DNA of 64,000 bases, taken from positions 297,352,001 through 297,416,000 of the forward strand of contig OZ024742.1 in assembly GCA_964016885.1 (NCBI GenBank), read 5' to 3'. Source of the DNA: Eledone cirrhosa. Its lineage: Eukaryota. Below, in pieces: positions 1 to 60,542 of the stretch; position 1 is the stretch's first letter; each line of letters starts with the position of its first letter. The notes below the pieces were generated by a model. That model was not told where the DNA came from and ran no database searches. It saw only the letters and a program-made list of their open reading frames with translations. The position numbers and the translations under genes were made by a program.

Positions 1-947
1 CTTGATCTACTTAGTGCCTCTTTTAAACCTTATCATAAACCTAACGAGAATCTAAGATATATACACAAAGAGTCTTGCCATCCCCCTATAATTTATAAAA
101 ATCTTACTCATAATATTAGCCGTAGGATTTCTACCTTATCTTCGTATCTAGACATTTTTAACGAAGCCGTCCCTTATTATAATAAGGCCCTCAATAACAG
201 CAGCTTTACAGAACATATTAAATATTTACCAACTCCTCCCCACAAAACTAGTCATAATAACAGGAAAAGGAAAATTATTTAGTTTACATCCCGTTCTCTC
301 TAACTGTCAAAACTCATGTAGGAAGGAAATTCCTTGACCTCCTAGACAAACATTTCCCCCCTAATCATAGATATTATAAGATTTTTAATAGAAATGTAGT
401 CAAAATCAGTTACTCTTGCTGTCCATCAATGAAGTCTAAAATCACCAACTCTAATCGTACGAGAGTAAATCCAGGATGCAGTTGCAGGAAGCCGGAAGAA
501 TACCCATTACAGGGCAAATGTAATACTAAAGCCATTGTGTATGAGGCCAAATTGACACCGTTGGCTAACAACCAGCCAGCCAAGAGTGAACGATATGTTG
601 GCATGACTCAGGACAGGTTCAAAACCAGGTTTTATGCACATGTCGCTTCTTTTAAACACTCTGATAAAAGAACAACAACGGTTCTCGCAAATAAAGTGTG
701 GGAATTCAAAGACAAAAACATCCCGTACACTATCGATTGGTCTATTTTGGACCATTCTAGAGAATACCAAAGGGGCACAAAGTATTGCTCTTTGTGCACC
801 ACAGAAAAATTTAGAATTTTCCAAAATTTGAAAGCCAATTCCACTTGCCTTAACTCCAAGACCGAGATCTTCAGATGTTGTCCTCAGCTGAAATCACATC
901 TACTTTGTAACTGGATTGACATTCCTAAGATGACTCAACCACCTTGA
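1..947 (+). mobile_element. Penelope-like retroelement (PLE), 3' part of ORF (RT thumb + linker + GIY-YIG), decayed; Hydra-clade-like
   Basis: Frame 1 from base 1 reads LDLLSASFKPYHKPNENLRYIHKESCHPPIIYKNL...RKRKII*, with TAG at 280-282 where W of the IIWFNPP-type motif is expected. After a frameshift it continues ...VGRKFLDLLDKHFPPNHRYYKIFNRNVVKISYSC into ORF 429-947. These are typical PLE RT C-terminal motifs. Clade assignment is from recalled motifs only. Confidence 0.85.
429..947 (+). pseudogene. GIY-YIG endonuclease domain of the PLE
   Basis: CSC...PLQGKC linker, IVYEA...YVGMT (GIY-YIG), RFKTRFYAH, KVW, CSLCTTEK, CLNSKTE. Confidence 0.85.
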
Positions 948-4249: not shown

Positions 4250-4309
4250 TTTCATTCTGATGACTGAAAGCAGATTTGTTTGCTTTCAAGAAACCACTGG
4301 TAAATGAAA
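4250..4309 (+). ncRNA. Type I minimal hammerhead ribozyme (family B)
   Basis: tttcatt-CTGATGA-c-tgaaagca(gatttgtt)tgctttca-a-GAAA-ccactgg-TA-aatgaaa. Helix I 7 bp, helix II 8 bp, GUA triplet. It lies in a ~245-bp unique island between microsatellites. Confidence 0.85.
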
Positions 4310-4402
4310 TAATTATCTTATGTTGTTTATTACATAACTATTAAGCTCTGTAACCTACATAGAGCCCTCCTTTTTCCTGGACGTTTCAGACGGAATTACT
4401 TC

Positions 4403-4442
<40 letters not shown>

Positions 4443-8519: not shown

Positions 8520-10045
8520 AAGGGGAGAGAATGGCAAGAGTTCTGGTGTTGCAGAAGAGAGGGGAGGGTGAAGGGGGAGTGTGATTGGGCAAGGGGGCAG
8601 AAGTGCTGCATCCTGCAGACAAGAACACAAAAGCATTCCTGCAGACGATGGCCAGTGACACACACTGCAACAGCCACCTAACCTTGCGGGGCTCCTTCCT
8701 CAGATGGGCTGCCGAAGTTTCAATCTTGCACAGGAGTTCAGCTGTACGGGGTCAACTACCCCTGAGATCTCGATGACAACTGTTACGAAGAGGAAGCAGC
8801 CAGACAAACCCTGGCATTTGTTTATTTTACGTTCTTCTGCATGGCTCGCCGCGATACTGGGGTTTGTTGCCAAAGTCACTAAGTTGGATGCAAAGAATGT
8901 GTTGCAGCAGGTGGTGTCCCAGATGAGGGATCTACCTCCTTCAAATGGAAAGAGGGGGATTTTGCAGAGGCCAAGGGAATGGGCTACTCCGATGCGAGTG
9001 CACCCATCATCAAGAAGGGTACCAGTTGATGAGGAGGGCACCGAATTGAGTGACGCACCGTTGTTGGGCTAAGAAGTGGAGCAGAGGCAGGTGAGGCGGT
9101 GTTAGTCCAAGCCAGACTTGATCTGTCTGACAGAAGACCTACAATTAATGTCGTCACAGTTACGTTGGGGGACGGAGAGTCCTTCGCCTTTCCAGTAGGG
9201 CAAAGCATGTCCCATCTCAGGAGCCAGGTCAGATTCGGCTGTCTGGCTGAGAACCTTGCTGACAACAGTGCTACTGGAGGAGATAGAGTAGAGGTAGGCA
9301 GCTAAAGCTAGATCCGAAGCTAATCGGAGGCCAAGGCCACCGAATCTTGCTGGGAGTGTTGCCTGTTGCTAGCCTGCGCTGTTGAAACTGTCATTGCAGT
9401 GTCGAATGGAGGTATCAAGTTCCCCAAGAAGATCTGTGTGGGGGTGGCAAGGTGCACCGCACAGCGTGAATGTGAATTTGGGGAGGGCAAAACAGTTCCT
9501 CAAGAGTAAGAGAGCAGGATGAACATCAATGAGGCGCAGCCTCTCTGCCAATTGGGACAAATCTGCATGCTTGGTCTCCAGGCATTCTCTTATCGATTTC
9601 AGGAGAATGAGGGAGTTAAAAATGCATGCAGCATCTTTGGGTGTCAGCCAAGCCCCAGCCAGGATGGGATGGGAGCAGAGTATGGCATTGCAAAGTTTGG
9701 CCTCTCCGTAGCTGATGTTGCTCACCTCAAACTTGGTTGGGTTGATCTCAAGTCGAAGGAGCTTTAAAACTGGGATGATTTGTCAAAGGTCCTCAACTAC
9801 CATCTCAGCCGGCTGTCGCATCCATGTCGCGTCGTTGAGGTACCAGATATTGGGGTGGGAGTGGGGGAAGATCAACTGAGCTACGTCATTGACTGCCAGA
9901 GCTAATAGGAGCGAGCCAAGTGGGTCCCCCTGCTGGATACCTGTGGCAGAAGTAACCCTGTTGTCAACAACCATGAATGAGCTGGGTCTTCCATACGAAA
10001 GGTGAATAAAGGGGTAGATGGAGGGGACTCGTCTAAGACTCAGAA
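8520..10045 (-). mobile_element. 5'-truncated, decayed CRE-type non-LTR retrotransposon (RT + restriction-like endonuclease)
   Basis: ORF pieces: GIQQGDPLGSLLLAL and NIWYLND (RT, YLDD-type); HPALLLLRNCFALPKF; and GRSLIWDTTCCNT...AASHAEERKINK...FVTVVIEISG (RLE PD-(D/E)xK region). Multiple frameshifts. Confidence 0.8.
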
Positions 10046-10338
10046 GATGAACATTTTTATTGTTTAAATACTTCATAAAATGTATTGAATCTTTCATCAG
10101 TTTCAGCAATGACTTTTCACTTTTATTTAATCAATTTAGTGGCTGAGTATTCCACAGACATGTTTACACTTAATGTAATTCACAAGCCAAATTGGCAGTG
10201 TGTAACAAAGCTTAATGTTTGGATTACAGGTGCAATCCGTATAAGCCCTTAGAACAGAAAAATATTATGATAAAGTTACTAATTCATTTCAATTTACAAA
10301 TTCCACTGTCATCTTCCAATTACGCACACACACACACA

Positions 10339-10415: not shown

Positions 10416-11412
10416 TCACAGAAAAAAGAGATTCAGTGTTGCGACGAAAGGAATTTATTGGACATATTACAAATGTATCTCGGGCGACCAGCTCGAAGCA
10501 CAATCTCTGAAAACTCTCGGACGTCCGATACGTCTCGATTCTACGAAGCAGATTTTCCTATAGTCCTTTAACATCGAATTTCTTCGTTTGTTGATTTAGA
10601 TCCTGTTGTCGTCATTCCATGAGTGGTCAAGAATTGTACACGTCACCGGTATTTCTAGCCACTCATGGTTGCCCACTTCTTGCTTCTTCTAGTTCTCCAC
10701 CTGTCAATCAAAATTTCTTCATGTATCAGAATTACTACTGTAGTGGTAGAGGGGCTGTAATCTTGAACGGCTGGCATCACTTCGACGTCTTCATTGCCCC
10801 TAGGTGCCTTAGTCTACTTCGGTCAGGTACACACCCGCAATTATGCTGTATGCGGCATTCATAATAAATAATGTTTTGCGGGAATTTAAAAAAAACAACG
10901 AATCATGGGGATATTTAGCGTAACATTAGCAGGACACAACCTTAGGATACACTCCGCCATACATATTTCAAAAAGAAAAGGAAAAAGAAAAAGAAAGAAT
11001 CTGTAGCAAGAACGTTTTTTAAAAAACGTTTTTAAAAAGCTTTCAACAGCCATTCAAACGGAAGGGCTATATCAATGGTGTTTTCAACAAATAGACCCAA
11101 TACTACACTCACACACTGGACTCAGGGGAGTGTGCATAGCCAAGATTCCGCACATATATAGGCATGAGAAAAGAAAAATCCATGGTAAGTCATCCGTACC
11201 CCCACGCATACGTGCTCAGACAAATACATCGATCCATGCATGCACACACCCGTGCCCATGCATGTCTGTGTGGACCACACATACATACACGCACCCACGT
11301 GTTCAAGATCCGGGAGTCTTGAACATTTTCCTATTACCCACTCTACTACCCTAAGTATTGAGTACTCTGGTGCATTATGGTCCACCTGGTTCCTTACCAC
11401 ACTTCCTTCGTT
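10416..11412. mobile_element. Unclassified ~1-kb element between (TA)n tracts
   Basis: Its terminal ~85 bp (11329-11412) recur inverted at 36350-36435, also next to (TA)n. Confidence 0.5.
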
Positions 11413-11426
11413 ATATATATATATAT

Positions 11427-12608
11427 ATGTATTTTAACTTTAATTATATCTCATAAAATAATACAACTGGCTTTTCCACATAATACATATTGTTAGCACC
11501 CCAAACACTTAAATTGGGTTCATATTAAAATATAACCTAATGTTTGTTGAGTGAGATGGTTACCAGTCAGAGTTTAGCTTTAAACTATCTCTGTTATTGT
11601 ATTAAATATTTTACTCTTGGTTGGCCAGACGTTTTTATTTCCAAGTACCTTTTAAATTTGACTTTCCGTATTTATTACTGTTGTGGATTATTGTGGGGTT
11701 TTTTTGGTTGTAACTTCTCTGTTTTTTAGCCTAAGAAAATATATATGTATGCCTATGTATATAATTACATGCATACATTTATTTTTTTAAATTAATTGAG
11801 TTCTTTACACGAGGAATTGATATTAGTTTTGAAATAGCTAATTAACCCGCGTGTGTTTTATATTTTACTCTTAATTCGGCCGGAGATTTACATTCCCATT
11901 TGCCCTTTAAAACATAACTTTCCGTATTTACTACGGTTATGAGATGCGGTTTCTTATTCGGCTACAACTTCTGATTTTAGCCTAAGAAAATATCTATATG
12001 CGTGTGTAATTTATACACGCATATATTTATTTTTTTAATTTCAATTGAGTTCTTAACACGTTGGGTTGATAATGTTTTCGATAAAACTAATTAACCCGCG
12101 TGTATATTATTTTTTTTCCTCTTTTCGTGGATCGTAGTTGTCTCCCCTTCCCGCTTCGTGACGCTAAAATACTTCCTCAGTCAAAAACTGCTGGAATTTC
12201 AAATTTGGCGGTCATTCGAGGCGAGAAGGAGCAACTTAACAGACACGATTTTTGACTGCGGTAAGAATTTTTTTCTTTATCAAAGTTTAATGGGCTTCCA
12301 CTGATGATTTATAAACGCCCACCTAAATATATTCTTACATGAATGTATATTAGGCTTCTACATAAACTGGAAATATTCTCCCAATTTGTAGAAAACTTAT
12401 AATGAAACAATTGTTTGGAAAGAGAGATGTATTTTAAATTTAATTATATCTCATAAAATAATACAACTGTCTTTTCCACATAATACATATTGTTAGCACC
12501 CCAAACACTTAAATTGGGTTCATATTAAAATATAACCTAATGTTTGTTGAGTGAGATGGTTACCAGTCAGAGTTTAGCTTTAAACTATCTCTGTTATTGT
12601 ATTAAATA
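11427..12608 (+). mobile_element. Non-coding element with 182-bp direct terminal repeats and a hammerhead (PLE/retrozyme-like)
   Basis: 11427-11608 is nearly identical to 12427-12608 (offset exactly 1000). Both flanks are (TA)n. There is an internal ~255-bp diverged tandem duplication (about 11610-12110) and a hammerhead just before the right repeat. Confidence 0.8.
12296..12420 (+). ncRNA. Type I hammerhead ribozyme with 96-nt branched helix II (family C)
   Basis: ttcca-CTGATGA-t-ttataa...ttataa-t-GAAA-caattg-TT-tggaa. Palindromic helix III, GUU triplet. Two internal hairpins: cctaaatatattc/gaatgtatattagg and ttctaca/tgtagaa. Confidence 0.75.
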
Positions 12609-13450
12609 TATATATATATATATATATAGTGACTGTTATCAACCAACAAAATTCCATTTTAAACAAATAACAATCTGAGCCTATTTTTGGATAAAACAGA
12701 AAGAATTTTTGAACTCCAACTAGATACAAGATACACCACAAGATAATCGCAAACCCTCCATCTCACTCTTACTTTTGAAAATCATTAGAATTGTGAAACC
12801 AGTGAAGTAAATAAATATTCTTAAAAGACTCCAGTTGTATCTTCAATTTTTTTTCTTATATATATATATATATATACATACACACACACGCACACACACA
12901 CATATACATATATTTATTCTTTGGGAAGATCCTGAAGTTATCAATATCCGTTTCAACACACGATTTCACATCAAGAATCTTGCAAAACAAATACAAAAAC
13001 AAAGTACATATTCTATATGATGTTCCGTTTAGTCAGGAGTAATAACTGTTTCATCTTTATTTACAATATTTCTTTTTCCTAAGACAAAATCCTGATTAAA
13101 AAAATTTAAAAATAAATTTTAAATATTTTGAAAAATATATTCTTGTATTCTACATCCATTAAACTATGAAATATGTTTTCAAAAAAAGTGAAATCTTGCT
13201 TAAAGCATTGTGCATATGTGTTACATTCATGTTAAAGACACTGTTGAAAAAAAGAAAAAAATTGAAAAAATTATTTTATTTTTGTTGAATATATAAAAAT
13301 ATTTTCATCATACTTTCCATGTATATTTATTCGATAAACTACAATAGAGAAACATCACTATTATTTGATTTGAAATAATCATTTATTATTATTGTTGTTG
13401 TTGTCGTTGTTGTTTACGTTGTTATTTTTATTATTATTATTGTTGTTTTG

Positions 13451-13790
13451 CAGCATAGCCCTTTACGTTCTGAATTAAAATCCCCCGAGGTTAACTTTGC
13501 CTTTCACCCTTACGGGGTAGATAAAATAAAGCCCCAGTAATGCATTGGAGTAATTGCTGGCCCTGTGCCAAAAGAAGAAACATTATTATTATTATTGTTG
13601 TTATTAAAAAAATAAATAATAATAAAGAAACCATTATTTTTGTTATTATTATTATTATTATTTTCATCAATATTATTATTATTATGCCGAGGTTGACTTT
13701 GCCTTTCATCCTTACGGGGTCGATAAAATAAAGTACCAGTAATGCACTGGATAATTGCTGGCCCTGTGCCTAAAGTAGAAACAATTATTA
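13451..13790 (+). mobile_element. Two partial Nin-domain SINE copies separated by (att)n
   Basis: ccgaggtt(a/g)actttgcctttca...ggggt(a/c)gataaaataaag...ggccctgtgcc(a/t)aaag occurs twice. Confidence 0.75.
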
Positions 13791-14734
13791 TTATTATCGA
13801 TTATCATCATTTCACCATTGTAATCATTGTCATCCTCCTCGTCCTCCTCCTCCTCCTCATTACTTTCGTTCATTCTCTCCTTATCATCACCATCATCATT
13901 ATCATCCACCATCACCATCATTCTCCTTCTCATCATCATCCTCATTACTATTATTGCTGTTGTCAATGATGTTGTTTACATTATAAAGCTATTTAATCTC
14001 CATGATTCTAAAATATGAAATAATTTCAGGCATGACGTGATCAGTTTAGTCTATTATTTTCAATTCAATGGAAATGTTCTCTTCATTGAAATCAGAAAAA
14101 TAAGAATTGGCAGGTGCAAATCTATAAATCACATGCCAGTTCATATATAGCAGATAATATTTCATCAAAAACTGTTTTACGGAAATCTATAAGGAAGGAA
14201 ATGCATCTATATCACTTTCTCTCTCTCTCTCCATATATATATATATATGTGTATATATGTATGTATATAGGTCTCTCTGCCTCTGTATCACTCTCTCTCT
14301 TTTTTCCTCCATGAGAGATTGCTTTCTCAGCACAGCAAGCAACATATATCTGCCACTTCTGTTATGCTCACATCTCTCAAGACTTTTTCCCTCTATCTGG
14401 TTGAGGATATGATGAACGCTCTAATATTAATGTCACATTGGAATGTGTCCAGAACACTCAACAAGTGTTGGTACTGATGCCATGGTAAAACGTACCTAGT
14501 CTTCTCTGTAAAATGATAGTGTCAATGTCACAGTAAAATGCATCCAGCCCACTCTGTAAATTGATAGTGCCCATGTCTCAATAAAATCCTCCCACCTCAC
14601 TTTGTAAAGTGCTATTGTCAGTGTCATGATAAAATGCTCCCACTACCTGCTGTAAAGAGGTTGGCATTAAGATAAGTATCCAGCTGTATAAACCCTTCAA
14701 AAGGGTTTATACAGTGTGTTAGACCTCCATCATA

Positions 14735-30252: not shown

Positions 30253-31275
30253 CATGTGTGCAAGTATGTATGTATATATATATACTCTTTTATCTGTTCC
30301 AGCCATCTAGATTTTGAGGGTTACAAGTAAGCGTTTTACAGAAAATAATCTTAAATGAAAAACAATAATCAAATGGAACAAAATTGATGGAATGATTATA
30401 AATGAAAAGAATGAGGCTGAAATAGGATATGGTGATAAGGAATTATTTTAAACATTAATGTAAGATAATGGCAATGCGTTTTTAATCTAAGATTTCAAAA
30501 ATAGCAGAGGATGCAGGAAACAGAAATTAATTAAATATAATAAAAATTAGTTGTATTAGATTAAACAAATATTTTTTAGTATTGTTGGATCTATTAAAAT
30601 AAATCTGGAAATATAATTTAAAATGACAAAAATAACTTATTTGAAAAGAAATATGTATGAAAAAGTTTTAGGCAAAGGGAAAAATTGCCCATGTGTTACA
30701 AAAATAGATTTATCAAATGTAGGTAAATTTGAGGCAATGAAGTGGCAAAGACATTAGAACATCTGCTTTCTACACCCTGTCTTCAAATCCTGCTCAGATT
30801 TACTTTATTTTCCATCCATTCGAGGTTGATAAAGTGTCAGTCTAGCACTAGAGGTAATTCTTCTTTTTTTATGACAGTAATGAATGACTTGAGGGAGGTT
30901 ACACTGCTATTTCTATCAAGGAGAAAAACAACATAGCTTCTCTGTCATTGATCTTCGTACTAAATATATCATTATTTTATGTCTTATGTGGAGGCCTTAG
31001 CAAAATGAAAACAAAATTCCCTCTTACCATGATAAACACTTTGTCAGCTCAATGGATGGGGAGGGGGGCTATATGCCATTTTTCGACCTGTTAGAAACAA
31101 TAGACAAATCTCTCTCTCTCCCTGGAATAAATTGATGGGGACAGGCATCATCAGTTTTAAATATCTAAAACGGCACCCCTACAACTCAATCAATAGTTAA
31201 GGGCCTATGGCATGACAGGAGAAATCTAACCAATCTGTTAATTGTTAGTCTTGGAATTATTATATTGTGATACTG

Positions 31276-32992
31276 TGTACCAAATTGCCAAGAAAATCAC
31301 CGGCAGTTCTAGAGCTAACTCAGGCCCGGTGAAAGCGAAAGATGGTACGCTGCTTTCCAAGGGTGAAGAAAAGTTAGTCAGATGGGCTGAACATTTCAAG
31401 GAAGTCCTCAACCGACCGGAGCCACGTGTGCCAGCAGACACTAAGGAACCTACTAGTTTGTTGCCTATCAATACTGATGACATCACCGAGAAAGAAGTCC
31501 GCATGGCCATCAAAACCCTTAAGAATAACAAGTCACCAGGTATGGATGGCATTTATGCTGAAATGCTGAAGTCAGGAGGCGAAAGCATGGTCAAGTGGAT
31601 GGGCCACTTATGTAATCTTGTGTGGAACACGGGTGAAGTCCCAGAAGATTGGAGAAACGGAGCGGTTGTCTGTATCCCCAAGAAGGGCAACCTTGCCGAT
31701 TGTGACAACTGGAGGGGAGTGACACTTCTCTCCATACCAGGGAAGGTCTATTGTGTGATGATCCTGAACCGCATACGTGGCATGATAGACCGGGAACTGC
31801 GAGAACAACAGGCAGGGTTCCGACCAAAACGTTCCTGTGCAGAGCAGATCTTTACGTTACGCCGCATCATTGAGAGGTACAACGAATTCCAGAGGCCCCT
31901 CACCGTCAGCTTCATCAATTTCTCCAAAGCATTCAATAGCATTCATCGGCCGTCACTCTGGAGCATCATGCATGAGTATGGTCTACCCCAGAAAGTCATT
32001 TCGGCAATCAAACAGATTTATGCAAACTCCAAGTGCTGCATACGGACAGAGGATGGTTACAGTGACTGGTTTGAGGTGGTTACTGGTGTGCATCAAGGTT
32101 GCTCGCTCTCTCCAATTCTCTTTGCCATAGCCATTGACTGGGTACTAAGAAGAGCGTCTAAAGACCAGGGTATATCTTGGGTGGGAGAGCAAAAGTTGTC
32201 TGACCTGGACTTTGCGGACGATATTGTTGCACTTGCAGAGAGCACAGCTGACCTGCAAATCATTATGAACAATATCAATGTCGAAGCAGGAAGCTTAGGT
32301 CTCAATATCAGTGCTAAGAAGACCAAAAGCATGTTATCTGGGACACACCCATCACCAACTAGTGTTTCATTGAACAAGGGGAGGTGGAGATAGTGGACAA
32401 CTTCACCTACCTAGGAAGCTCCATTGACAATGGGGGCGCCATGGACAGTGAATTACAATGTAGAATGGGAAAGGCTTCAGCAGCATTTAACCAGCTTGTC
32501 AAGATCTGGAAGAGTAGGAAGTTGACCCTCAAAACAAAGATGAGATTCTACAACAGCAACGTGCAGTCCATACTCTTGTACGGAAGTGAAACATGGCACC
32601 TTAAGACCAGCCAAGAGAAGAAGTTGTACGTATTTGATTCCAGGTGTCTGCGAAAGATCCTGGGGATTAAATGGAGTGACCATGTAACAAACCAGGAAGT
32701 CAGGAACCGCACCAACCAGCAGCTAGTCTCTTCTGCCATCTGCAAGCGACGCCTGGGCTGGTTTGGGCACGCTTTGAGACTTCCCCCGGAGAGACTGGCG
32801 AACCAAGTACTTAAATGGAACCCACAGGGAAGCAGACGGAGAGGGCGACCCAAAATGAACTGGCGCCAGACAGTTGAGAGGGACCTGCGAGCGACAAACA
32901 GACAATGGCGGGACGCTGTGCAACTGGCTGCTGACCGAACGCGGTGGAACACTATGATTGCCTCATGCGTCGCAAGACGCGGGAGCTTCTGA
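31276..32992 (+). pseudogene. RTE reverse transcriptase ORF broken by one frameshift near 32380
   Basis: ORFs 31242-32393 and 32384-32992 join (LNKG/EVEIVDNFTYLGS); catalytic motif mutated to FINFSKAFNS. Confidence 0.9.
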
Positions 32993-35715: not shown

Positions 35716-36349
35716 TATATGCATATACATACAAACACACACATACACACACACATATATATATATATATACATTTTAAAGCATCTTTTTGGCCATTCTG
35801 CTTGAAACTATTATCTCATCTTTTCTTTTCCATTCTTACTTGTATAATCAATATAATTTCTATCTGTTCCACATATATTGGGTTAACGATCACTAATTTT
35901 CATGTGAATCACACACACACACACACACACACTAATAAATGCAAATACACACACACACATAATCGGATCCTTTCATCTATTGTATTGATAGTTCTTTGCT
36001 ATCTTCATTATCTTTTAGCTTGTATGACACAAAGACAATATCCTCCATCTGCTGCTTTCTCTACAGATATTTTCCCATTTCTTAACATTCTTCATTGAGA
36101 AGCCCATTGATGCAAAGGATATAGAGAGTCATGTATATGATGGTAATAGTGATTCATATGATATCCACATATAAAATGTTCTATATTCCAAATGTATGTG
36201 CAAGCTGTATATCTGCAAAATCTTCACTCTAAGCATTGTGGTTTTGTCAAATTAGTATATTTGCCATAGGTAGGAACAGACATAAAGGGCAAGAAGTGGT
36301 TTAGTTTTATATGGAGCTGATGACCTACATATATATATGTATATATATA

Positions 36350-36538
36350 TAACAAAGGAAATGTGGTAAGGAACCAGGTGGACCATAATGCACCAAAGTA
36401 CTTAATACTTAGGGTAGTAGAGTGGGTAATAGGAACGAGTAGGACCCCGACAGCTGAGCTCAAGCCATTTCGACGGCTAATTAGAATTAGCCGTTAAAAC
36501 GGCTTGAGCTCAGCCGTCGGGGTCCTACTCGTTCCTAT
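36350..36538 (-). mobile_element. Short element: shared ~85-bp terminus plus a 110-bp fold-back hairpin
   Basis: 36350-36435 is the reverse complement of 11329-11412. 36429-36538 is an almost perfect inverted repeat. (TA)n on both sides. Confidence 0.7.
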
Positions 36539-39864: not shown

Positions 39865-40482
39865 ATTATTATTTCAAGAGCGGTGGATTTGCAGTATCGG
39901 TAGAGGGTCAGACGCCATGCTCTCCAGCATAGTTACGTCCCTTTACGATCTGAGTTCAAATCCCGCCGAGGTTGACTTTGCCTTTCATCCTTACGGGGTC
40001 GATAAAATAAAGTACCAGTAATGCACTGGGTAATTGCTGGCCTTGTGCCTAAAGTAGAAACAATTATTATTTCAAGAGCGGTGGATTGGCAGTATCGGTA
40101 GAGGGTCGAACGCCATGCTTTGACGCATAGAGTTATGGTCCTTGCCATTCTGAGTTCAAATCCCGCCGAGGATTACTTTGCCTTTCATCCTTATGGGGGG
40201 TCGATAAAATAAAGTAGCAGTAATGCACTGGGTAATTGCTAGCCTTGTGCCAAAAGTAGAAACAATTATTATTTCAAGAGCGCAGTGGATTGGCAGTATC
40301 GGTAGAGGGTCGGACGCTATCCTTTGCAGCAAAGAGTTATGGCCCTTTATGGTCTGAGTTCAAATCCCACTGAGGTTAACTTTGCCTTTCATCCTTACGG
40401 GGTCAATAAAATAAAGTACCAGTAATACACTGGGATAATTGTTGGCCTTGTGCCAAAAGTAGAAACAATTATTATTTCAAGA
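39865..40482 (+). mobile_element. Head-to-tail trimer of Nin-domain SINEs separated by an identical 15-bp spacer
   Basis: attattatttcaaga at 39865, 40063, 40265 and 40468, with three ~185-bp SINE units between. Confidence 0.9.
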
Positions 40483-43140: not shown

Positions 43141-43480
43141 CATCCTATGCCCCAAATGCAAACTATGGGTACACAAGAGATGTAGTAGGACTTCATGTAG
43201 GTTAGCAAAGAATGCAGGTATTATATGTGGTCGTTTCACAAACATAGTAAATAGCAAGAACAGTTCTGTATGAGCAAGACATGGCCCCACATGTAAAAGG
43301 GTAGCACTTGAGAGTAATCTTCTCTTGGCTCATCAAGAACACAATACATTTGCAATATATGTGTAACACCCATATCTCAAATATATATATATATATGTGT
43401 GTGTGCGTGTGTATGTGCACCTACATAGGGTAGGGATTGTTTGTAAGTTTGTTTATGTGCGTGTACATATATGTATATAT

Positions 43481-44051
43481 ATATGAAAGAAGTAAAATAA
43501 GAAAATTATAAAAATTAACTTACTAAAATTTCACTCCAACTAATTAGTTTCTGAAAGAGAATAAACATAGTTTCCAAATGGAAAGCATGGAGAAACCTTT
43601 CGTCATCAGGAAGTCTGTTCTCAGCTAAGTTACCAGGCGATGCGTGGATACAGGGAACTTATACAAAAATAATTCAGTGGATGGAAAAAAGCAAGCATGG
43701 ACTAAATTCCAAGACATTGAAAAAAATCACTGCCTACTTGGTTGGTGGCAAATTCAAAAGAATCAATCACGTGACATCGAGGTTAATCAGTGAGGAGTGG
43801 GGTGTTAAAAAGACAGTAGCCGAGCCATTACTATGAACTATAGTAGCAGTTTTGGCAAATTTTTGCCCAACAAAATAATTTGGAGATAATTATAAAGAAT
43901 TAGTATATCTACCAACATATATATATATATATAGATGCATACCTATGCTAGCAAATATATAGGTTTCGTCTTAGTAACTTTGTGGTTGAATGCAAGGGGA
44001 TGCAGAACAATTATATGAAAGACGTAAAATAAGAAAATTATAAAAATTAAC
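43481..44051 (-). mobile_element. Non-coding hammerhead element with 39-bp direct terminal repeats (unit 532 nt)
   Basis: atatgaaaga(a/c)gtaaaataagaaaattataaaaattaac at 43481-43519 and 44013-44051; (TA)n flanks. Confidence 0.75.
43533..43614 (-). ncRNA. Type I hammerhead ribozyme with 51-nt helix II (family D)
   Basis: Minus strand: acttc-CTGATGA-c-gaaag...tttccatttggaaa...ctttc-a-GAAA-ctaattag-TT-ggagt. Palindromic helix III, GUU triplet. Confidence 0.75.
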
Positions 44052-47268: not shown

Positions 47269-49476
47269 CATATATTGGTATTTGTGTTTAAAATACGATT
47301 GTACTTACAATATTTAACATTAACTGAATGAGCACACACTCCATGCATGCATAATGTAAAATTTCAGAGTATATATAAATGTATTTCCCAAGCTGAATCC
47401 GTGTAACCATAAAGTGTGTCAAGGTTAGACCTGCAAATTACAATCATAGTTCATCCAACAGGTTAATGCAGTTTCCATTTATCCAATTTTAATCACTACG
47501 TTTGGTGTTGGCAAGAGGCTATATTAAAAATCTCTTGCTCAAAATGCTACACAGTAGGATCAAACAAATGTACTGCTTATCTATGTTTTGGTCAATTTGA
47601 AGCTAAGATAGGAGTAAATAGGTGATATTGAGTACAGATAATATAAATTTTGATATGATGGTGTAATTTGTGGAATGGGTATCTGTTGTAGTGTGGGATT
47701 TTCTGCAGGCGTAGTGTAAAGTAAAAGAAGGGTCATAAAAATCAGATGCTTAGATGTGGAATTCAGGTTGTAAGATCTAAATAATTGTGTATAATAACTG
47801 GCAGAATTGAATATATAGCAGAAACATGAGTCAAGCATTTAAGACTTTTAATGAGAGCAGATCAATTGATCAACTCTATGGATTCCAAACACAATCTAGT
47901 AAGTAACCGAAGGTATAAATGCTAGTTAAGTCTATATAATATATGTAAAGACCATGAAAATAAACAGTAACAGATAACAACACATTACAATAATGGTGTA
48001 TTAGTATAATGCTTAAAAGGAGTTAGAAAATAGCTTTGATCCTTTGGGCACTAGTCCTTCATCAGACAGTAGACACAGAGAGAAAATGGGGTACTTCAAA
48101 GAGAGGAGTAGAAAGAAGATGAATGAAAAAAAAAAGAAAAACACGAAAATGGAGATAAAAGGAGACAGAAAGAACGTTTATAGTTACTTATCAGCCTAGA
48201 GTTAAGTAATTCTCTATTCATTGTATTTTTAGGGTTGTGGTATACTATGTAAAAGACAAATTTTTTATATCATAATGATGCTGATACTCTTTGGGAAAAA
48301 TATCAGAAAGCTATAATACTATGAATAAATTACCATAGGATCATGAAAGAAATTTTCTAAATGGGTTTACAAATTGTGTTCTGACAACCCAGAGACACTT
48401 TCCTCGCCATATATAATTGATAGTCTAAGGCCAGATGCAATTATACACTCCATCACTCAAATATATTATTTGCAGCCAAAATGACATATGAAATAAATCC
48501 AGTTTAGGAAATAATGCAATCAGATATTCCAAATGAAATACATGCAGCTGGGTGAACATAAGACTATATCATAACTGTAGCAGAGGTTATCTACTGCCAA
48601 ATTTAAACTAAGCTACAGAGCCTCTTTCAAAGATCTATCTACATTAAAGAAAGTAATTATTGCCAGTGTGATTTACCAGCTTCAAAGCTTTTTTTATTTG
48701 ATGTTTGGCAACTTGAAACACCTATCTTCAGTTGAACAGTTAACATCAGAAATTGGCTTCTGGGAAGTAATTATTACAATCATCAGCTCATAATTTTGTT
48801 TGTTTATTTTGTATAGTCACCCAAAGAGAATTAATTCTTTATAAATACAATTCCCATGAAATATTTATAAAGGCAGCCTAAAAGAACTTTATCTAAAGAT
48901 AACCTATATAATATAGAGGTTGACTTTGTCTTTCGTCAGTTTATGGTTGATAAAGTACCAGTCTCAGGCAGTGGACTGGTGGAATCAGAGTATGTTTGGC
49001 TATTTGCACTCTGCATTCAAATTATATGTTAACCAAAATTGTTTGAATCAGATCATTTCTAGAATTACAAATTCCTTTGTGATTGTAACAAGGAATTCAC
49101 TGGTTTGATCTGCATAGCTTATACTAAATTATGTTCACAAGAGTCATTAGTAAAATATTTGAGTTTGTTCCTTGACATTTTCCATTTCTTACTTTCTGTA
49201 AGTGTTGAAAACCAGCTTGATTTCTTCTTTCTACTTTATAAGGTTTTCTTCTTTTAATAGATAAGATATAGAGCAACCCTTCCATTACTATATCTCTAAC
49301 AAAAGACAGTCTATAATTTCCAAACCCTTATGAAATTAATCAAAGTTTTGAAATATTTAATAATATATGTATAAATATTTCGTATCTCCAAAGAAATACG
49401 GTTTTAGGAAGCCGTAGCTATGCAAACACTGGGCGGCTAACGCCCTCTGGTGATGTCCAGCAGAAGCAAGGGGGAC

Positions 49477-49522
49477 AACCGTCTATGCATTTCAGGCTTA
49501 ACTGGCCATCGTCAGGACGGTC
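49477..49522 (-). ncRNA. Type I minimal hammerhead ribozyme (family F, copy 1)
   Basis: Minus strand: gaccgtc-CTGACGA-tggc(cagttaa)gcct-GAAA-tgca-TA-gacggtt. Helix I 7 bp, palindromic TGCA helix III. Confidence 0.85.
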
Positions 49523-49969
49523 CCTCCCACCGCTTGCGACTGCTGGACTAGGAGACAGGCGAGAATATATAGTTTTCTCGTCTGTGTAAATGAGGTGATT
49601 AATCTCATTTGCATATGAAGCTGCATAACAACTTATGCAGCTTCATATGCAAATGAGTTAAGCCTGAAATGCATAGACAGTTGTCCCCCTTGCTTCTGCT
49701 AGACATCACCAGAGGGCGTTAGCCCCCCCCCCCCCCCCGGTGTTTGCATATCTACGGCTTCCTAAAACCGTATTTCTTTGGAGATACAAAATATGTTTAC
49801 ATATTGTATTAAGCTATGCTTGAAGCGAAATCCTATTTCTTTTCTATTATAAGTTGAGCCAACTTATGCAGCTTCATATGCAAAAGAGATTAATCACCTC
49901 ATTTACACAGACCAGAAAACTATATATTCTCGCCTGTCTTCTAGTCCAGCAGTCGCAAGCAGTGGGAGG

Positions 49970-50015
49970 GACCATCCTGACGATGGCCAGTTAAGCCTGA
50001 AATGCATAGACGGTT
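49970..50015 (+). ncRNA. Type I minimal hammerhead ribozyme (family F, copy 2)
   Basis: gaccatc-CTGACGA-tggccagttaagcct-GAAA-tgca-TA-gacggtt, with one helix I mismatch. Confidence 0.8.
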
Positions 50016-52089
50016 GTCCCCCTTGCTTCTGCTGGACATCACCAGAAGGCGTTAGCCCCCTCGCCTCCCTCTTGGTGTTTGCATAGCTATGGCTTCCTAA
50101 AACCGTATTTCTTTGGAGATACGAAATAATATAACTAACTTTATCATTATTAAGTTGGTGTTTGAAACAAATTAACAGAAGCTCTTATATAGCATTATGA
50201 TGAAATGGTTTTGGATAAATATAGAGCTATTGTAAAACCAAGAGTGGTTTGGTATCAAACGGTTTAATGATTTCTTAATGTTATCTGCAAGAAGTTAATT
50301 CAAATGTTTTGACCAAGATTCTATGAAAGCTGTTATAAATTAACAAAATTGATTAATTTTGTACAAAAGGAAGACTTAATTCACCTTTAGCAATTTCTCT
50401 CCTTATGAAATAGGAAGTTATTCATGAAAATTAACAAGCTATGCCGGGTTTTGTTGTTTGTTGTGTTGTTTATCAGTTCCATGTTAAATATAGATTTCAG
50501 ATAAGGTATCTTTCAGTTGAACTACAATGTCTTTGAAGAAAATTGATACAGCAATAATATTTAGATTGGAAGATATCCAAAATAGTTATGCTAGAACCTT
50601 TACTCAATTTGATCTTTCCAGTGCAATATGTGAATGTTAACGGTGAGCAGTATTAAGTTTACATGGATTCCTGAGAAATTACAGACCTTATATATGAATT
50701 AAAACAGTGGTGTCACTAAACTACTCAGCTGCTCACACCAAAATGTTGCCATTTACATTAAAATGGTTATACAGACATCAGAATAATACTACTGAATACA
50801 ACAAAAAACTATTTTAATATATTCAGTAGATTGGTTTCTGATTTAGGCACAAAGCCAGTGATTTTGCAGCTCAGAAGATGTAAAAATAGTGGAATCAGTA
50901 TTCTACTTAAAAACAAGGGTTGACATTAGGAAAGGCATCCAGCCATAGAATATTGCTAAAAAGGTATTGTGCAACACATGCAAGCACAGGAATAATGGAT
51001 ATAAAATAATAATGAGGATGATATTGTGTTGGTTTGTTTTCTGCTTGTATATAAATATATTGTACTTATCTAATTATAAATATTGTTAGAACAATATAGT
51101 TCATAGATGACATAAAACTGAATTAGATGGTAATTTATTTATGGTAATTAGATGATAATTTATCTAATCATTTCATTCAAGAAATATTTATATCTTCGTA
51201 GGTCACTTTAAATAAACACAAGTTGGTTCAATACACTTTTTCTTCTTTAGAAAGAAGACATTATGGTTAAGCAATAAATCATTATATGAAATGTAATTAA
51301 TTTGGTTATTTAATTTTTAATTCTTTTTTCTTGATATTTTTTCTTCCCTTTGACCTAAGTTGAAATGTTTCCAGTCTAATGAACAAAATAAGTTCAAGAA
51401 ACTTTGACTTGACAAACCAAACAATTGCTTAATGATGAAGAATTTTCATGGAATGCCCAAATAAGGTTATTTGAGATGTCTTGTTATAAAAGAGGTTTTA
51501 TTTCCTTATCGTTTCATGTCAATGATTATTAAAAAAGAAGAGAATGAGAGGCACTGTTTACTGTAAACAAGTATTATAAAATCTAATAATTAGAACATAT
51601 GTATATTTCTTAGCTTAAAAATATATTTTATTGAAATTTATGAGAAAGTTAGAAATTTCGTCAAATGTTTTTTTGTTCTTTTTTCTATAGAAAAATAGTC
51701 TAAAAGATTTTTGATAATACATAAACAACCATCCGGTTATTAAACCAACCAACTGGAAATTTGTAATAAATTGAAGTGAAAACCAATAGACGTGTGTGTT
51801 TTTATTAGCAGCATGACCCCCAAGTATAAGAATTAATAATTTGCTAGCTACAAAAAGGCTTCAAATAACAGGCTATTGTCATGACATTCTCTTTTAGATT
51901 AAATAACATACAAAGTGATATATTTTCTAATAACCTGAGGTTCAGTACTCTTTACCTTTATAAAAATATGACAGATACTTGTTAATGGTAAAAATATGTT
52001 TTTCATGTCTCACATTGTTCCAGTGGAGATGAGATGCTATAAAAAATCCTACACAAAACAAATCACAAAAGAGGAGGTCCACAAAATAA

Positions 52090-56770: not shown

Positions 56771-57615
56771 TTAAGAAATTGCAAGTACAATCCATTAATA
56801 GAACTATAAATATATGCAAAACATTTAAGAAATTCAGTATGTAATAACAGCATAAACACATATATAGATTCAGAAACATATGCACTTCTACATATGTAAC
56901 TCAAAACACAGATCAACATATGCAATAACACCCATACCTGTATACACACATACACACAGACACACACACACATATTCATGTACCTAGGTGATGTCTAACT
57001 TCCAATGAAAGCGTCTTGATTCTATGTTAGAAACTGACCCTCTCTCTATTAGTGAACATTTATATAATTATAAAACAGAACATACACACATATATATATA
57101 TGTGCACACACACATGCACACACACACACACACATACACACAGACAGATAAACAGGCAGACAGACAGACAGGGATGAATTTAATTTGTGTATAACATTTG
57201 TTTGATAGAAGATAATTGTTATTATTATTTCATCATTTCAATATATGTCTTATAAGATCAATAAGAATCTAAATTGTACAATTAAGATTTGATTTTGAAT
57301 AGCTTTGCCTATAAATAATTTAAGCATATTCAAGTGTATCCTATGTGTAATTTCGTTTTAATTGTTATAAATGTCGAGAATGATAGACAAAATTGGAGAA
57401 AGTTTGAAAAGTTGTCTACCAAATAATTGGGAATAATATTATTATAGAGAGTATAAAGTACCAGTAATGTACTGGGTATTTGCTGGCCTTGTGCCAAAAG
57501 TAGAAACAATATTATTATAGATAGTAAAAACATTTAAGGGAACCAAAATAGATTTGTTTGCTTGAAATAGGCTTCCAATACTGTAATAATCATAAGAATC
57601 ATAATGTCATAGCTT

Positions 57616-57930
57616 AATAATTGTTTCTACTTTTGGCACAAGGCCAACAATTATTCCAGTGTATTACTGGTACTTTATTTAATCGACCCCGTAAGGATGA
57701 AAGGCAAAGTTAACCTCGGTGGGATTTGAACTCAGAATGGCATAATAATTGTTTCTACTTTTGGCACAAGGCCAGCAATTAACCAGTACATTACTGGTAC
57801 TTTATTTAATCGACCCCGTAAGGATGAAAGGCAAAGTTAACCTTGACGGGATTTGAACTCAGACCGTAATAGGACGTAACTATGCTAGAAAGCATGACGT
57901 CCAACCCTCTACTGATACTGCCAAATCGCC
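57616..57930 (-). mobile_element. Nin-domain SINE dimer (full-length copy + 5'-truncated copy)
   Basis: taataattgtttctacttttggcacaagg...gatttgaactcaga occurs twice. Confidence 0.85.
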
Positions 57931-59347: not shown

Positions 59348-60542
59348 CATCATCATCATCACCGTTTTACGTCCGTTCTTCCACGCTAGCATGGATTAGA
59401 TGGGTTGTCCTGTTGTGTGCAGTGTCTGGTCGGTTGACCATGCCTTGCTCATACAGGAACTGATCTGGTTTGATTTCTACAGCTGGATGCCCTTCCTAAC
59501 ACCAACCTCATTTACAGTGAGTGCTGGGTGCTTTTTCGTGGCGCCTACACGTCCACTTTACAGTGTGGGCTGGGTGCTTTTTTGCCATGGCACCTCCACG
59601 ACCACCTTGCGGTGGGGGGAGTGGGGGCATATTGTTTATATGCTTCAGCATGTACCCATGGGAGGTCGGGTACCCTGTATTACTGCGTGACGCCAGAAGT
59701 CACGGTCGTGTGTCATTGTCTTTGAGAGGTGTAATTGGGTAAGGTCGGCTTTTATCACCTCATCCCAGGTCATCTTGGGTCTCCCCACTCCGCGGTTTCC
59801 ATCAACTTCTAGTGCTCTGCACCTTTTTATGCAGCTGTCATCCTTCATACGCATCACATGTCCATACCAGCGCAACCGCCTCTCCTGCACACAGCATTTG
59901 ATTCCTCTTATGCTCAGTCTCTCTCTCAATTTATTTATGCTTTGTCGTTCACGTATATTACTGTTACACATCCATCGGAGCATGCAGGCTTCGTTTCTCT
60001 CTAATCTACGTAAGTCTTCCACCTTCAGCGCCCAGGTCTCACTACCATGCAACAGCGATGTTTGGATACACGCATCATACAGTCTGCCTTTCATTCAGAG
60101 GGAGAAGCCTTTTGCAGCTAGCAGTGGTAGTAGTTCCCTAAACTTCTTCCATCCCGTTCTTACCCTAGTTATTGTACTTTCTGAACACCCACCTCTGTTG
60201 CTAATTCGGTCACCTAGGTAGCAGAAGCTGTCTACTGTTTCTACAGGACCCTCCCAGAGATTGGTGGTACTTGTTTCCTGTGGCTGTCTGCTGCTTGCTG
60301 TTTCAGCACAGCTGCTGCATGTGAATCCTACATTCTTAATTAAGCTTCCTGAGATCCCGCTACATCTCTTGTGTACCCATTGTTTGCATTTGGGGCAGAG
60401 AATGGAGTTCCTACCTACACCTTTCCTACATACTGAGCAAGGCCATTTCCCTGAGGGGATCTGGGTTCTGTTTTCTCGTCTACTTACAAGGACCTTAGTC
60501 TTTGTCATGTTGACTTTGAGACACTTTCTCTCTAGTCCCTGC
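59348..60542 (-). mobile_element. 5'-truncated RTE LINE copy (PHD-finger subfamily)
   Basis: ORFs 60095-60508 and 59645-60094 are in frame and separated by one stop. Homologous to the C-terminal part of 61773-63890. (gat)n tail; 5' end abuts (TA)n. Confidence 0.9.

Follow-up and report, generated by a model that had tools for sequence, protein, structure and literature searches.

Which enzyme inserted a noncoding, ribozyme-bearing element into a TA microsatellite, and in what state was the RNA that it copied? These questions are raised by positions 11427 to 12609 of a 64,000-nucleotide stretch of Eledone cirrhosa DNA (contig OZ024742.1), called the window below. We propose, with a probability of about 0.65, that the element is a nonautonomous, noncoding passenger of Hydra-clade Penelope-like retrotransposons, copied from a signal in the next unit through its terminal repeat (region A), the ribozyme, and one whole unit. 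The proposal draws directly on the anatomy of the element, its TA target, its divergent multicopy family, the lack of a coding frame, the Hydra-like features of the ribozyme, and, in autonomous relatives, a hairpin that covaries and has clustered 3' ends next to it.

Penelope-like enzymes are the closest relatives of telomerase, and one Penelope-like clade has been reconstituted in vitro. With a short, covarying hairpin by the start site, the way these enzymes choose their RNA and start site could be tested directly in one more clade. The hairpin is also a rule for finding nonautonomous passengers that lack sequence similarity.

Layout of the element and its hammerhead motif

The element is ordered A, B1, B2, C, ribozyme, A (Table 1), i.e., a 1000-nt unit plus 183 repeated nt, which makes 1.18 units with one ribozyme. 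A sequence-only reading had described 182-bp direct repeats offset by exactly 1000 bp. The offset was confirmed, whereas the repeats measure 183 nt, with two mismatches (11438 C/12438 A and 11470 G/12470 T). As also stated there, the right repeat starts 11 nt past the predicted cut at 12415/12416: GUU occupies 12413-12415, the gap comprises 12416-12426, and the repeat runs from 12427. The element is flanked by (TA)n on both sides, showing insertion in a TA microsatellite, and has microhomology with this target at both ends, where target sequence could account for the initial AT of the repeat (2 nt) and for its final ATAT (4 nt). Because of the AT overlap and because a sister copy of the repeat in the left flank also has ATGTA after its TA run, the 5' end lies at cut +12 to about +17. 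Since the terminal ATAT could belong to the target, the 3' end lies at cut +190 to +194.

Table 1. Features of the element and its borders (window positions; the cut is the predicted hammerhead cleavage site)
Feature	Position	Strand	Description
Left (TA)n target remnant	11412..11428	.	Overlaps first 2 nt of A; TA tail of older repeat 11328-11410
Region A, left copy (183-nt pseudo-LTR)	11427..11609	+	Cut +12 to +194 of upstream unit; 181/183 identical to 12427-12609
Module B1	11610..11862	+	Hydra-type signal halves ACUC-UUGG 11613-11620 and UUAA-UU-GAGU-UCU 11792-11804; 171-nt folded insert; long AU hairpin 11732-11789
Module B2	11863..12112	+	Duplication of B1 (74% identity) with signal halves 11867-11874 and 12041-12053 and a long hairpin, 11983-12037
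Region C	12113..12290	+	Folded noncoding spacer before ribozyme, z -3.7; autonomous elements have ORF and 3' UTR there
Possible pseudoknot	12291..12321	+	12291-12295 with 12317-12321, 5 bp, P 0.73-0.98; both strands unpaired in forced hammerhead fold
Type I hammerhead motif	12296..12420	+	Stem I 12296-12300/12416-12420; core CUGAUGA 12301-12307; U.U 12308/12403; predicted cut 12415/12416
Hammerhead 3' parts	12397..12415	+	Stem II 3' arm 12397-12402; GAAA 12404-12407; GUU 12413-12415; palindromic 2-bp stem III
Purine run	12417..12427	+	11 nt, spans gap between cut and repeat; sole run of at least 10 in element
Region A, right copy	12427..12609	+	3' end of insertion; runs into (AT)n; predicted reverse transcription start at last AUAU
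Right (AT)n target remnant	12606..12628	.	Overlaps last 4 nt of A

The hammerhead has a 5-bp stem I, and its stem II (12309-12314/12397-12402) encloses two hairpins, which form a 96-nt branched insert. The family majority has G at 12315, adding a G-C pair to stem II. A hammerhead descriptor returned seven rows in the window, compared to three summed over 20 Markov controls of 64 kb, with no strong form among the controls. The hammerhead pattern is beyond chance, and cleavage is predicted from it. Rfam returned no gathering hits in the window, and its 21 weak hits at E ≤ 10 over 11300-12700 included no hammerhead, as expected since stem II holds the 96-nt insert; long branched inserts of this kind let hammerheads escape Rfam and standard descriptors. 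Some weak Rfam hits placed miRNA families over the B hairpins and were dismissed as far below gathering scores. The forced hammerhead fold lay 7.3 kcal/mol above the minimum, with the pseudoknot not counted. In the model, the helix listed in Table 1 competes with the hammerhead fold and is possibly compatible with the hammerhead as a pseudoknot.

Copies, coding capacity, and folding

Parts of the element were found in seven sequencing runs from three studies. Four runs (X1, X4, X5, and X8) were placed, by best rows only, on 11610-12850 without 12596-12638, with the left repeat and its flank outside the comparison. In X1, at least 2266 contigs lay on the element, with 563, 638, 741, and 324 of them at 99% or more, 95 to 99%, 90 to 95%, and less than 90% identity, respectively. 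X4 contributed 99 contigs and X8 3704 reads, and X5, which bears another organism label (organism B) than X1, contributed 37 contigs, one of them across the cut (12374-12559). One flank piece was identical in X1, which may thus be the source sample. The element therefore belongs to a multicopy family, divergent and present in two organisms or more, and is no local duplication. The earlier preference for a noncoding more-than-unit retro-insertion over a single-copy local duplication is borne out by the X1 contigs, of which only 563 fall in the top identity class, and by the organism B contigs. A scan with the family pattern yielded nothing in metagenome contigs, and a single viral-contig match, with just 27 nt alike, was taken as chance.

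Summed depth in X1 rose from 3 to 24 thousand over 11610-11945 to 120 to 205 thousand over 12366-12575; depth is not copy number, and in qualitative terms only, the rise toward the 3' end is as from 3'-primed, 5'-truncated copies. No step in family depth was detected at the predicted cut. At 11521 and 12521, both A copies of the window have C, whereas T predominates in the family (97% of the X1 depth, and 129 of 134 and 252 of 305 X8 reads). The C allele at 12521 is not private but belongs to a subfamily, as its share in X4 was about 43%. Given this shared minor allele, both A copies likely derive from one template variant.

Several apparent breakpoints were discarded. Pile-ups of X8 read ends, one of them 3 nt from the cut (12412) and the others at 12011, 12202, 12442, and 12512/12515, all fell on AATT sites and are a restriction artifact of the RAD library; two X8 rows in which reads begin, at 11771 and 12022, are not among the pile-ups so explained. 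Loose ends at 12278 represent the same upstream sequence in diverged form and are no breakpoints. In addition, 19 X8 reads join 11739 and 12012 on opposite strands, as might result from the B1/B2 hairpins or from chimera formation in the library.

Could A be a genuine LTR of a nonautonomous element of the TRIM/LARD or plant retrozyme type, with priming at the purine run 12417-12427? The repeats are indeed near-identical, as in LTRs, and directly before the right repeat there are 11 purines with TG behind them, an arrangement found at 25 of 128,000 window positions, so that purine-tract priming could be meant. The same bases, however, are also explained by their pairing in stem I and in a hairpin (12424-12452), whose 5' arm they form. 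Furthermore, the repeat lacks a 3' CA and a terminal inverted repeat, TG occurs near its start, and no TGG adjoins the left repeat, the first one lying 9 nt after it. The element ends in (TA)n, and its type I ribozyme is located outside the repeat. Ribozyme depth equaled A depth in X1 and exceeded it in X5, and no loose end at 12427 was present among the matches listed. We regard the LTR explanation as very improbable.

With a GC content of 31%, the element has a longest ATG frame of 57 aa, which was rejected as a gene since common 1-nt deletions in the family cross the frame. A profile of six Hydra-type proteins did not match the element, and neither an ORF nor an ORF remnant was found in it. 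Modules B1 and B2 form a 250-nt duplication, and their AU-rich hairpins have z scores of -5.3 and -8.6. The circular fold of the unit reached -256 kcal/mol, compared to -187 ± 7 kcal/mol in 40 shuffles (z -9.7), an excess of -69 kcal/mol that was outside the range of 13 other 1-kb windows (-24 to +14). Local hairpins supply much of this stability, and RNAalifold on B1/B2 gave two-sided changes in 2 of 47 pairs, which is weak.

A hairpin behind the ribozymes of Hydra-clade elements

Positions 1-947 (+) of the window hold the 3' part of a Hydra-clade Penelope-like ORF with the reverse transcriptase thumb and the GIY-YIG endonuclease (profile E value 1.4e-59). This fragment, which has a frame change near 260-280, represents a candidate partner clade. 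By eye its protein resembles Hydra-1_Obim of Octopus bimaculoides; Pfam found no family on the endonuclease fragment. With the window protein and five relatives as queries, Hydra-type loci were collected, and the best 80 of at least 119 were used. The marks of the clade are RWK, DKT, a CxCx5C linker, plus GIY-YIG at the C terminus according to PMC8557442, and in six long Hydra-type ORFs we detected RWK in 6/6, CxCx5C in 6/6, and DKT in 5/6. From 30 of these 80 loci (best 80 of at least 119) we obtained 32 hammerhead rows, all on the ORF strand, with stem II spans of 12 to 30 nt and U.U at the stem II base in 17 rows. The published hammerhead table, which lists an octopus family, gives U.U in 14 of 26 Hydra rows (PMC8557442).

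The Hydra clade is described as preferring (TA)n targets (PMC8557442). In the window, (TA)4+ followed 53 to 190 nt after the cut in five of six hammerhead motifs, compared to a background of 16% (P = 6e-4); a weak seventh row was left out of this count, and two of the six rows represent one inverted pair. BLASTN detected no DNA similarity of the element to the Hydra fragment of the window or to the 80 loci of other hosts (best 80 of at least 119), and what it shares with these autonomous Hydra-type copies is a short hairpin motif only. Mobilization of the element by the Hydra clade is, in our view, highly probable.

The motif is a bulged hairpin, RCUC-N4-loop-N4'-UU-GAGY-NCU, which in the Hydra-type loci (best 80 of at least 119) lies downstream of the cut, near +39 to +75, with a second occurrence in many cases at +105 to +135. 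In the same set, GAGCAC was present in 14 of 25 postcut regions against a background of 4.5%. The inner stem covaries: 63 of 80 cells were paired, compared to 41.4 ± 3.7 in shuffles, with none of 5000 as high. This count covers 20 distinct arm pairs taken with no inner-stem filter, one instance being partnerless, and the shuffles ignore the kinship of the loci. We found no description of the hairpin in the open-licence literature; by eye it can be recognized in two published consensus sequences, Hydra-2_Amil and Hydra-1_Ajap (PMC8557442).

On same-family templates, 3' ends were located 1, 3, 1, 3, 21, and 0 nt before a motif copy, i.e., five of six within 3 nt; the count comprises same-family mappings and leaves out the cross-family cases L012, L041, and L072 on L045. 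A rule based on TA runs gave positions in 13 of 30 rows, nine at +29 to +51 (one of them an internal island), four at +101 to +113, and none between. These two groups match the two start sites behind the "tail" of the green anole element as described in PMC11167929. The right arm of an inverted pair in the window ends 3 nt before a hairpin motif, and the insertion end of the element lies 3 nt before the motif of B1, a loop-expanded version. A strict form of the motif with up to 200 nt between its halves had 5 hits in 128 kb of window strands, compared to 0.62 in controls; two were behind other hammerheads, one was in the left-flank repeat, and the remaining ones were B1 and B2. This descriptor had been widened to 200 nt and supplied with the NCU tail after B1 was known. 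Together, the sequence data suggest that the hairpin marks the reverse transcription start of the Hydra-type enzyme, just 5' of the motif. A separate observation is that at L038:2480-2512 the motif directly follows a TA run, as if the 5' junction of a copy had hit the start site.

The motifs in B1 and B2 probably serve as the start signal, an assignment that we hold with some reserve. When folded in isolation, their outer helix had P values of 0.74 to 0.84 (B1) and 0.41 to 0.47 (B2), and the inner stems had 0.16 to 0.22 and 0. In the fold of the whole unit, the outer helix had a P of 0.0 in both modules, and the ACUC of B1 paired instead with GAGU in A (P 0.99). A motif-like pairing within A (11498-11552) was dropped because of a mismatch and a P near 0.

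The next unit has its signal motif 3 nt beyond the 3' end of the insertion, which suggests that the 1000-nt stretch is a true cyclic unit, and the evidence favors the natural unit of about 1 kb proposed earlier. If instead two independent 5'-truncated copies of 183 and 1000 nt had entered one TA tract, or if a local duplication had occurred, 1000 nt would be no natural unit. TA tracts do gather nested insertions here, the left flank being such a tail; in addition, B1 is thinly covered and the A-B1 junction was seen once. However, no TA run separates A from B1, their junction lies 3 nt before the signal motif as do the ends of relatives, and the A copies share a minor allele. This origin appears very unlikely.

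Template RNA, known relatives, and other repeats

In the mechanism that we propose for the passenger element, a partner Hydra-clade enzyme would nick a (TA)n tract and would likely bind the bulged-hairpin signal in RNA, namely in module B1 of the next unit. Copying would start at the AU-rich bases (AUAU) just 5' of the signal, and reverse transcription would proceed through A, then through the intact hammerhead and a complete 1000-nt unit, with joining by TA microhomology at the far end. As the signal is 3' of the start, it would not be copied in that pass, so that only more-than-unit copies would regenerate it. With one ribozyme only, the window copy alone would give no full monomer. Tandems would not be renewed from such a copy, so that at some stage the family would depend on tandems, jumps, or circles.

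The 5' end of the element coincides with the first TA-like island after the cut. The autonomous copy L009 shows the same order: TA, a start at cut +34 at the first strong island, one unit, a ribozyme, an end at cut +41, and TA. Other relatives start at cut -43 (L024) and cut +125 (L007), so their 5' ends are not fixed at the cut. For the element, at slightly less than even odds, the template had a self-cleaved 5' end, either as a multimer cut at the upstream ribozyme only or through a jump between cut monomers; the basis is one junction with TA microhomology, 11 to 16 nt off the cut. Six Hydra-type contigs (L004, L008, L011, L012, L016, and L023) have first segments of 55 to 122 nt that recur at or near the end of the unit, and these recurrences are likely tandems collapsed by the assembler and no evidence of circles.

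Ordinary truncation of an uncut RNA at a TA-like island would yield the same element class, with the nearness to the cut a coincidence. The unit has 20 such islands, five of them in A, and the chance of this outcome is 5% overall and 20 to 25% given an end in A. The scattered starts of the relatives and the absence of a family depth step at the cut fit truncation as well. For the anole Poseidon element, PMC11167929 describes uncleaved RNA as the main template, cleavage as dispensable in vitro, and no RNA-seq ends at the cut; of nine predicted Xenopus retrozymes, eight are reported without cleavage in vitro (bioRxiv 2026.07.22.740005). On the other hand, both the element and L009 have their 5' end at the first island after the cut, and the hammerhead core, its stems, and the extra stem II pair of the family have been kept. 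We consider truncation unlikely, though of appreciable weight.

Still less likely is the classical retrozyme model, in which cut monomers are ligated to a 1000-nt circle and a Penelope-type enzyme copies 1.18 turns of it. Copying of a circle or of more than a unit has already been proposed (PMC4209133; PMC7229834), and circles are documented for coral, mussel, and axolotl retrozymes in PMC7229834. The strong circular fold, unmatched in the 13 other 1-kb windows, and the minor allele common to both A copies agree with a circle, and the inability of one-ribozyme copies to renew tandems implies that circles or jumps are needed. A circle, however, does not explain why the second pass should halt 11 nt from the cut, the window copy contains only one ribozyme, no tandem array was seen, and much of the stability is local.

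These elements can also be combined into a joint reading, which is tentative and as a whole doubtful. In it, Hydra enzymes would start 0 to 7 nt upstream of the hairpin, two hairpins would explain the 60-nt "tail" of the clade, and the uncopied signal would explain why partial tandems alone remain active. The 1-kb RNA would be a loop-inflated mimic of a 5' UTR, with a pseudoknotted ribozyme with branched stem II and two expanded signals, and its self-cleaved, purine-rich 5' end would set the far end and possibly act as second-strand primer.

Animal non-LTR retrozymes, as described in PMC7229834 and bioRxiv 10.64898/2026.07.22.740005, are likewise noncoding, multicopy, low-GC, strongly folded units with a type I hammerhead, and their proposed mobilization by Penelope-like elements parallels that proposed here. 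The axolotl HHR_Amex2 (PMC7229834) shares with the element the U.U at the stem II base and a 2-bp stem III. Their unit, however, is usually given as 150 to 450 nt, with a family consensus of up to 972 nt (bioRxiv 2026.07.22.740005), compared to 1000 nt here. At least two consecutive ribozyme-bearing units define a retrozyme in the same source, whereas the window copy has 1.18 units and one ribozyme. Unlike the stem II of retrozymes, that of the element carries the 96-nt branched insert, in an element known here from DNA and with predicted cleavage.

The Hydra clade as described in PMC8557442 resembles the element in its (TA)n target, its partial tandem with pseudo-LTRs, and its sense-strand hammerhead with U.U; its 3' end 30 to 200 nt after the cut and the bulged-hairpin motif behind the ribozyme also correspond, the cut of the element being 190 to 194 nt from the 3' end. 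In contrast, the element has no ORF (RWK, DKT, CxCx5C, and GIY-YIG are absent) and no DNA similarity to the autonomous copies compared, and its stem II of 96 nt and motif loops of about 170 nt exceed those of the clade (12 to 30 nt and 0 to 8 nt). Poseidon of the green anole is similar in its internal start downstream of a hammerhead, its two sites giving a "tail," and its AT-rich target, but belongs to another clade, and its start sites are placed in an AC-rich stem-loop inside the ORF (PMC11167929). Nonautonomous Chlamys elements, of which MRC1 is an example, are Penelope-like elements that were formerly taken for LTR elements and have pseudo-LTRs as well (PMC8557442); unlike the element, they are described there as green algal, generally with a 3' sequence common with the partner and mostly without hammerheads. 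Plant LTR retrozymes, as summarized in bioRxiv 2026.07.22.740005, are also noncoding, with a unit near 1 kb, direct repeats, and a hammerhead, but have a type III hammerhead in each LTR, PBS/PPT, and a 4-bp target duplication, whereas the element has a single type I hammerhead outside the repeats and a TA target. We classified the element as a variant of a nonautonomous Penelope-like element or non-LTR retrozyme, not as a proven retrozyme, and as no LTR retrozyme. Its novelty lies in a unit size at the upper limit, a branched stem II, and a candidate start signal, while the element class and the model of a circle or cleaved end are already in print.

The window contains further repeats. At 1304-2678, an inverted pair of 218-nt repeats (1387-1604 and 2461-2678) has a hammerhead in each arm and TA at the outer ends; its left arm is 83 nt longer and holds a hairpin motif. 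A separate Hydra-type tail at 4250-4439 (+) comprises a hammerhead with its cut at 4302, the hairpin motif at 4345-4365, and (TA)17. A hammerhead motif at 43480-43615 (-) has a stem II span of 51 nt, and (TA)n follows its cut at a distance of 53 nt. A minimal hammerhead-like motif at 49515 (-) is surrounded by nested repeats, direct and inverted (265 nt, 92%), at 49357-50128, with no TA run nearby. The left flank of the element (11328-11410) is the tail of another repeat, in which a TA run accompanies a hairpin motif (11340-11366). The sister of this repeat, at 36349-36536 (-), forms a fold-back element of 190 nt that is bounded by TA and lacks a hammerhead core, and the two have strong but different hairpins just before their common tail. 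Broken LINE-type reverse transcriptase frames were found at 31242-32992 (+; RVT_1 at 31242-32390) and, as judged from translations, at 59645-60541 (-), 61912-62778, and 9369-10130 (-). Finally, a 200-nt SINE-like repeat family, partly in tandem, is present at 13459-13797, 39865-40482, and 57615-57869.
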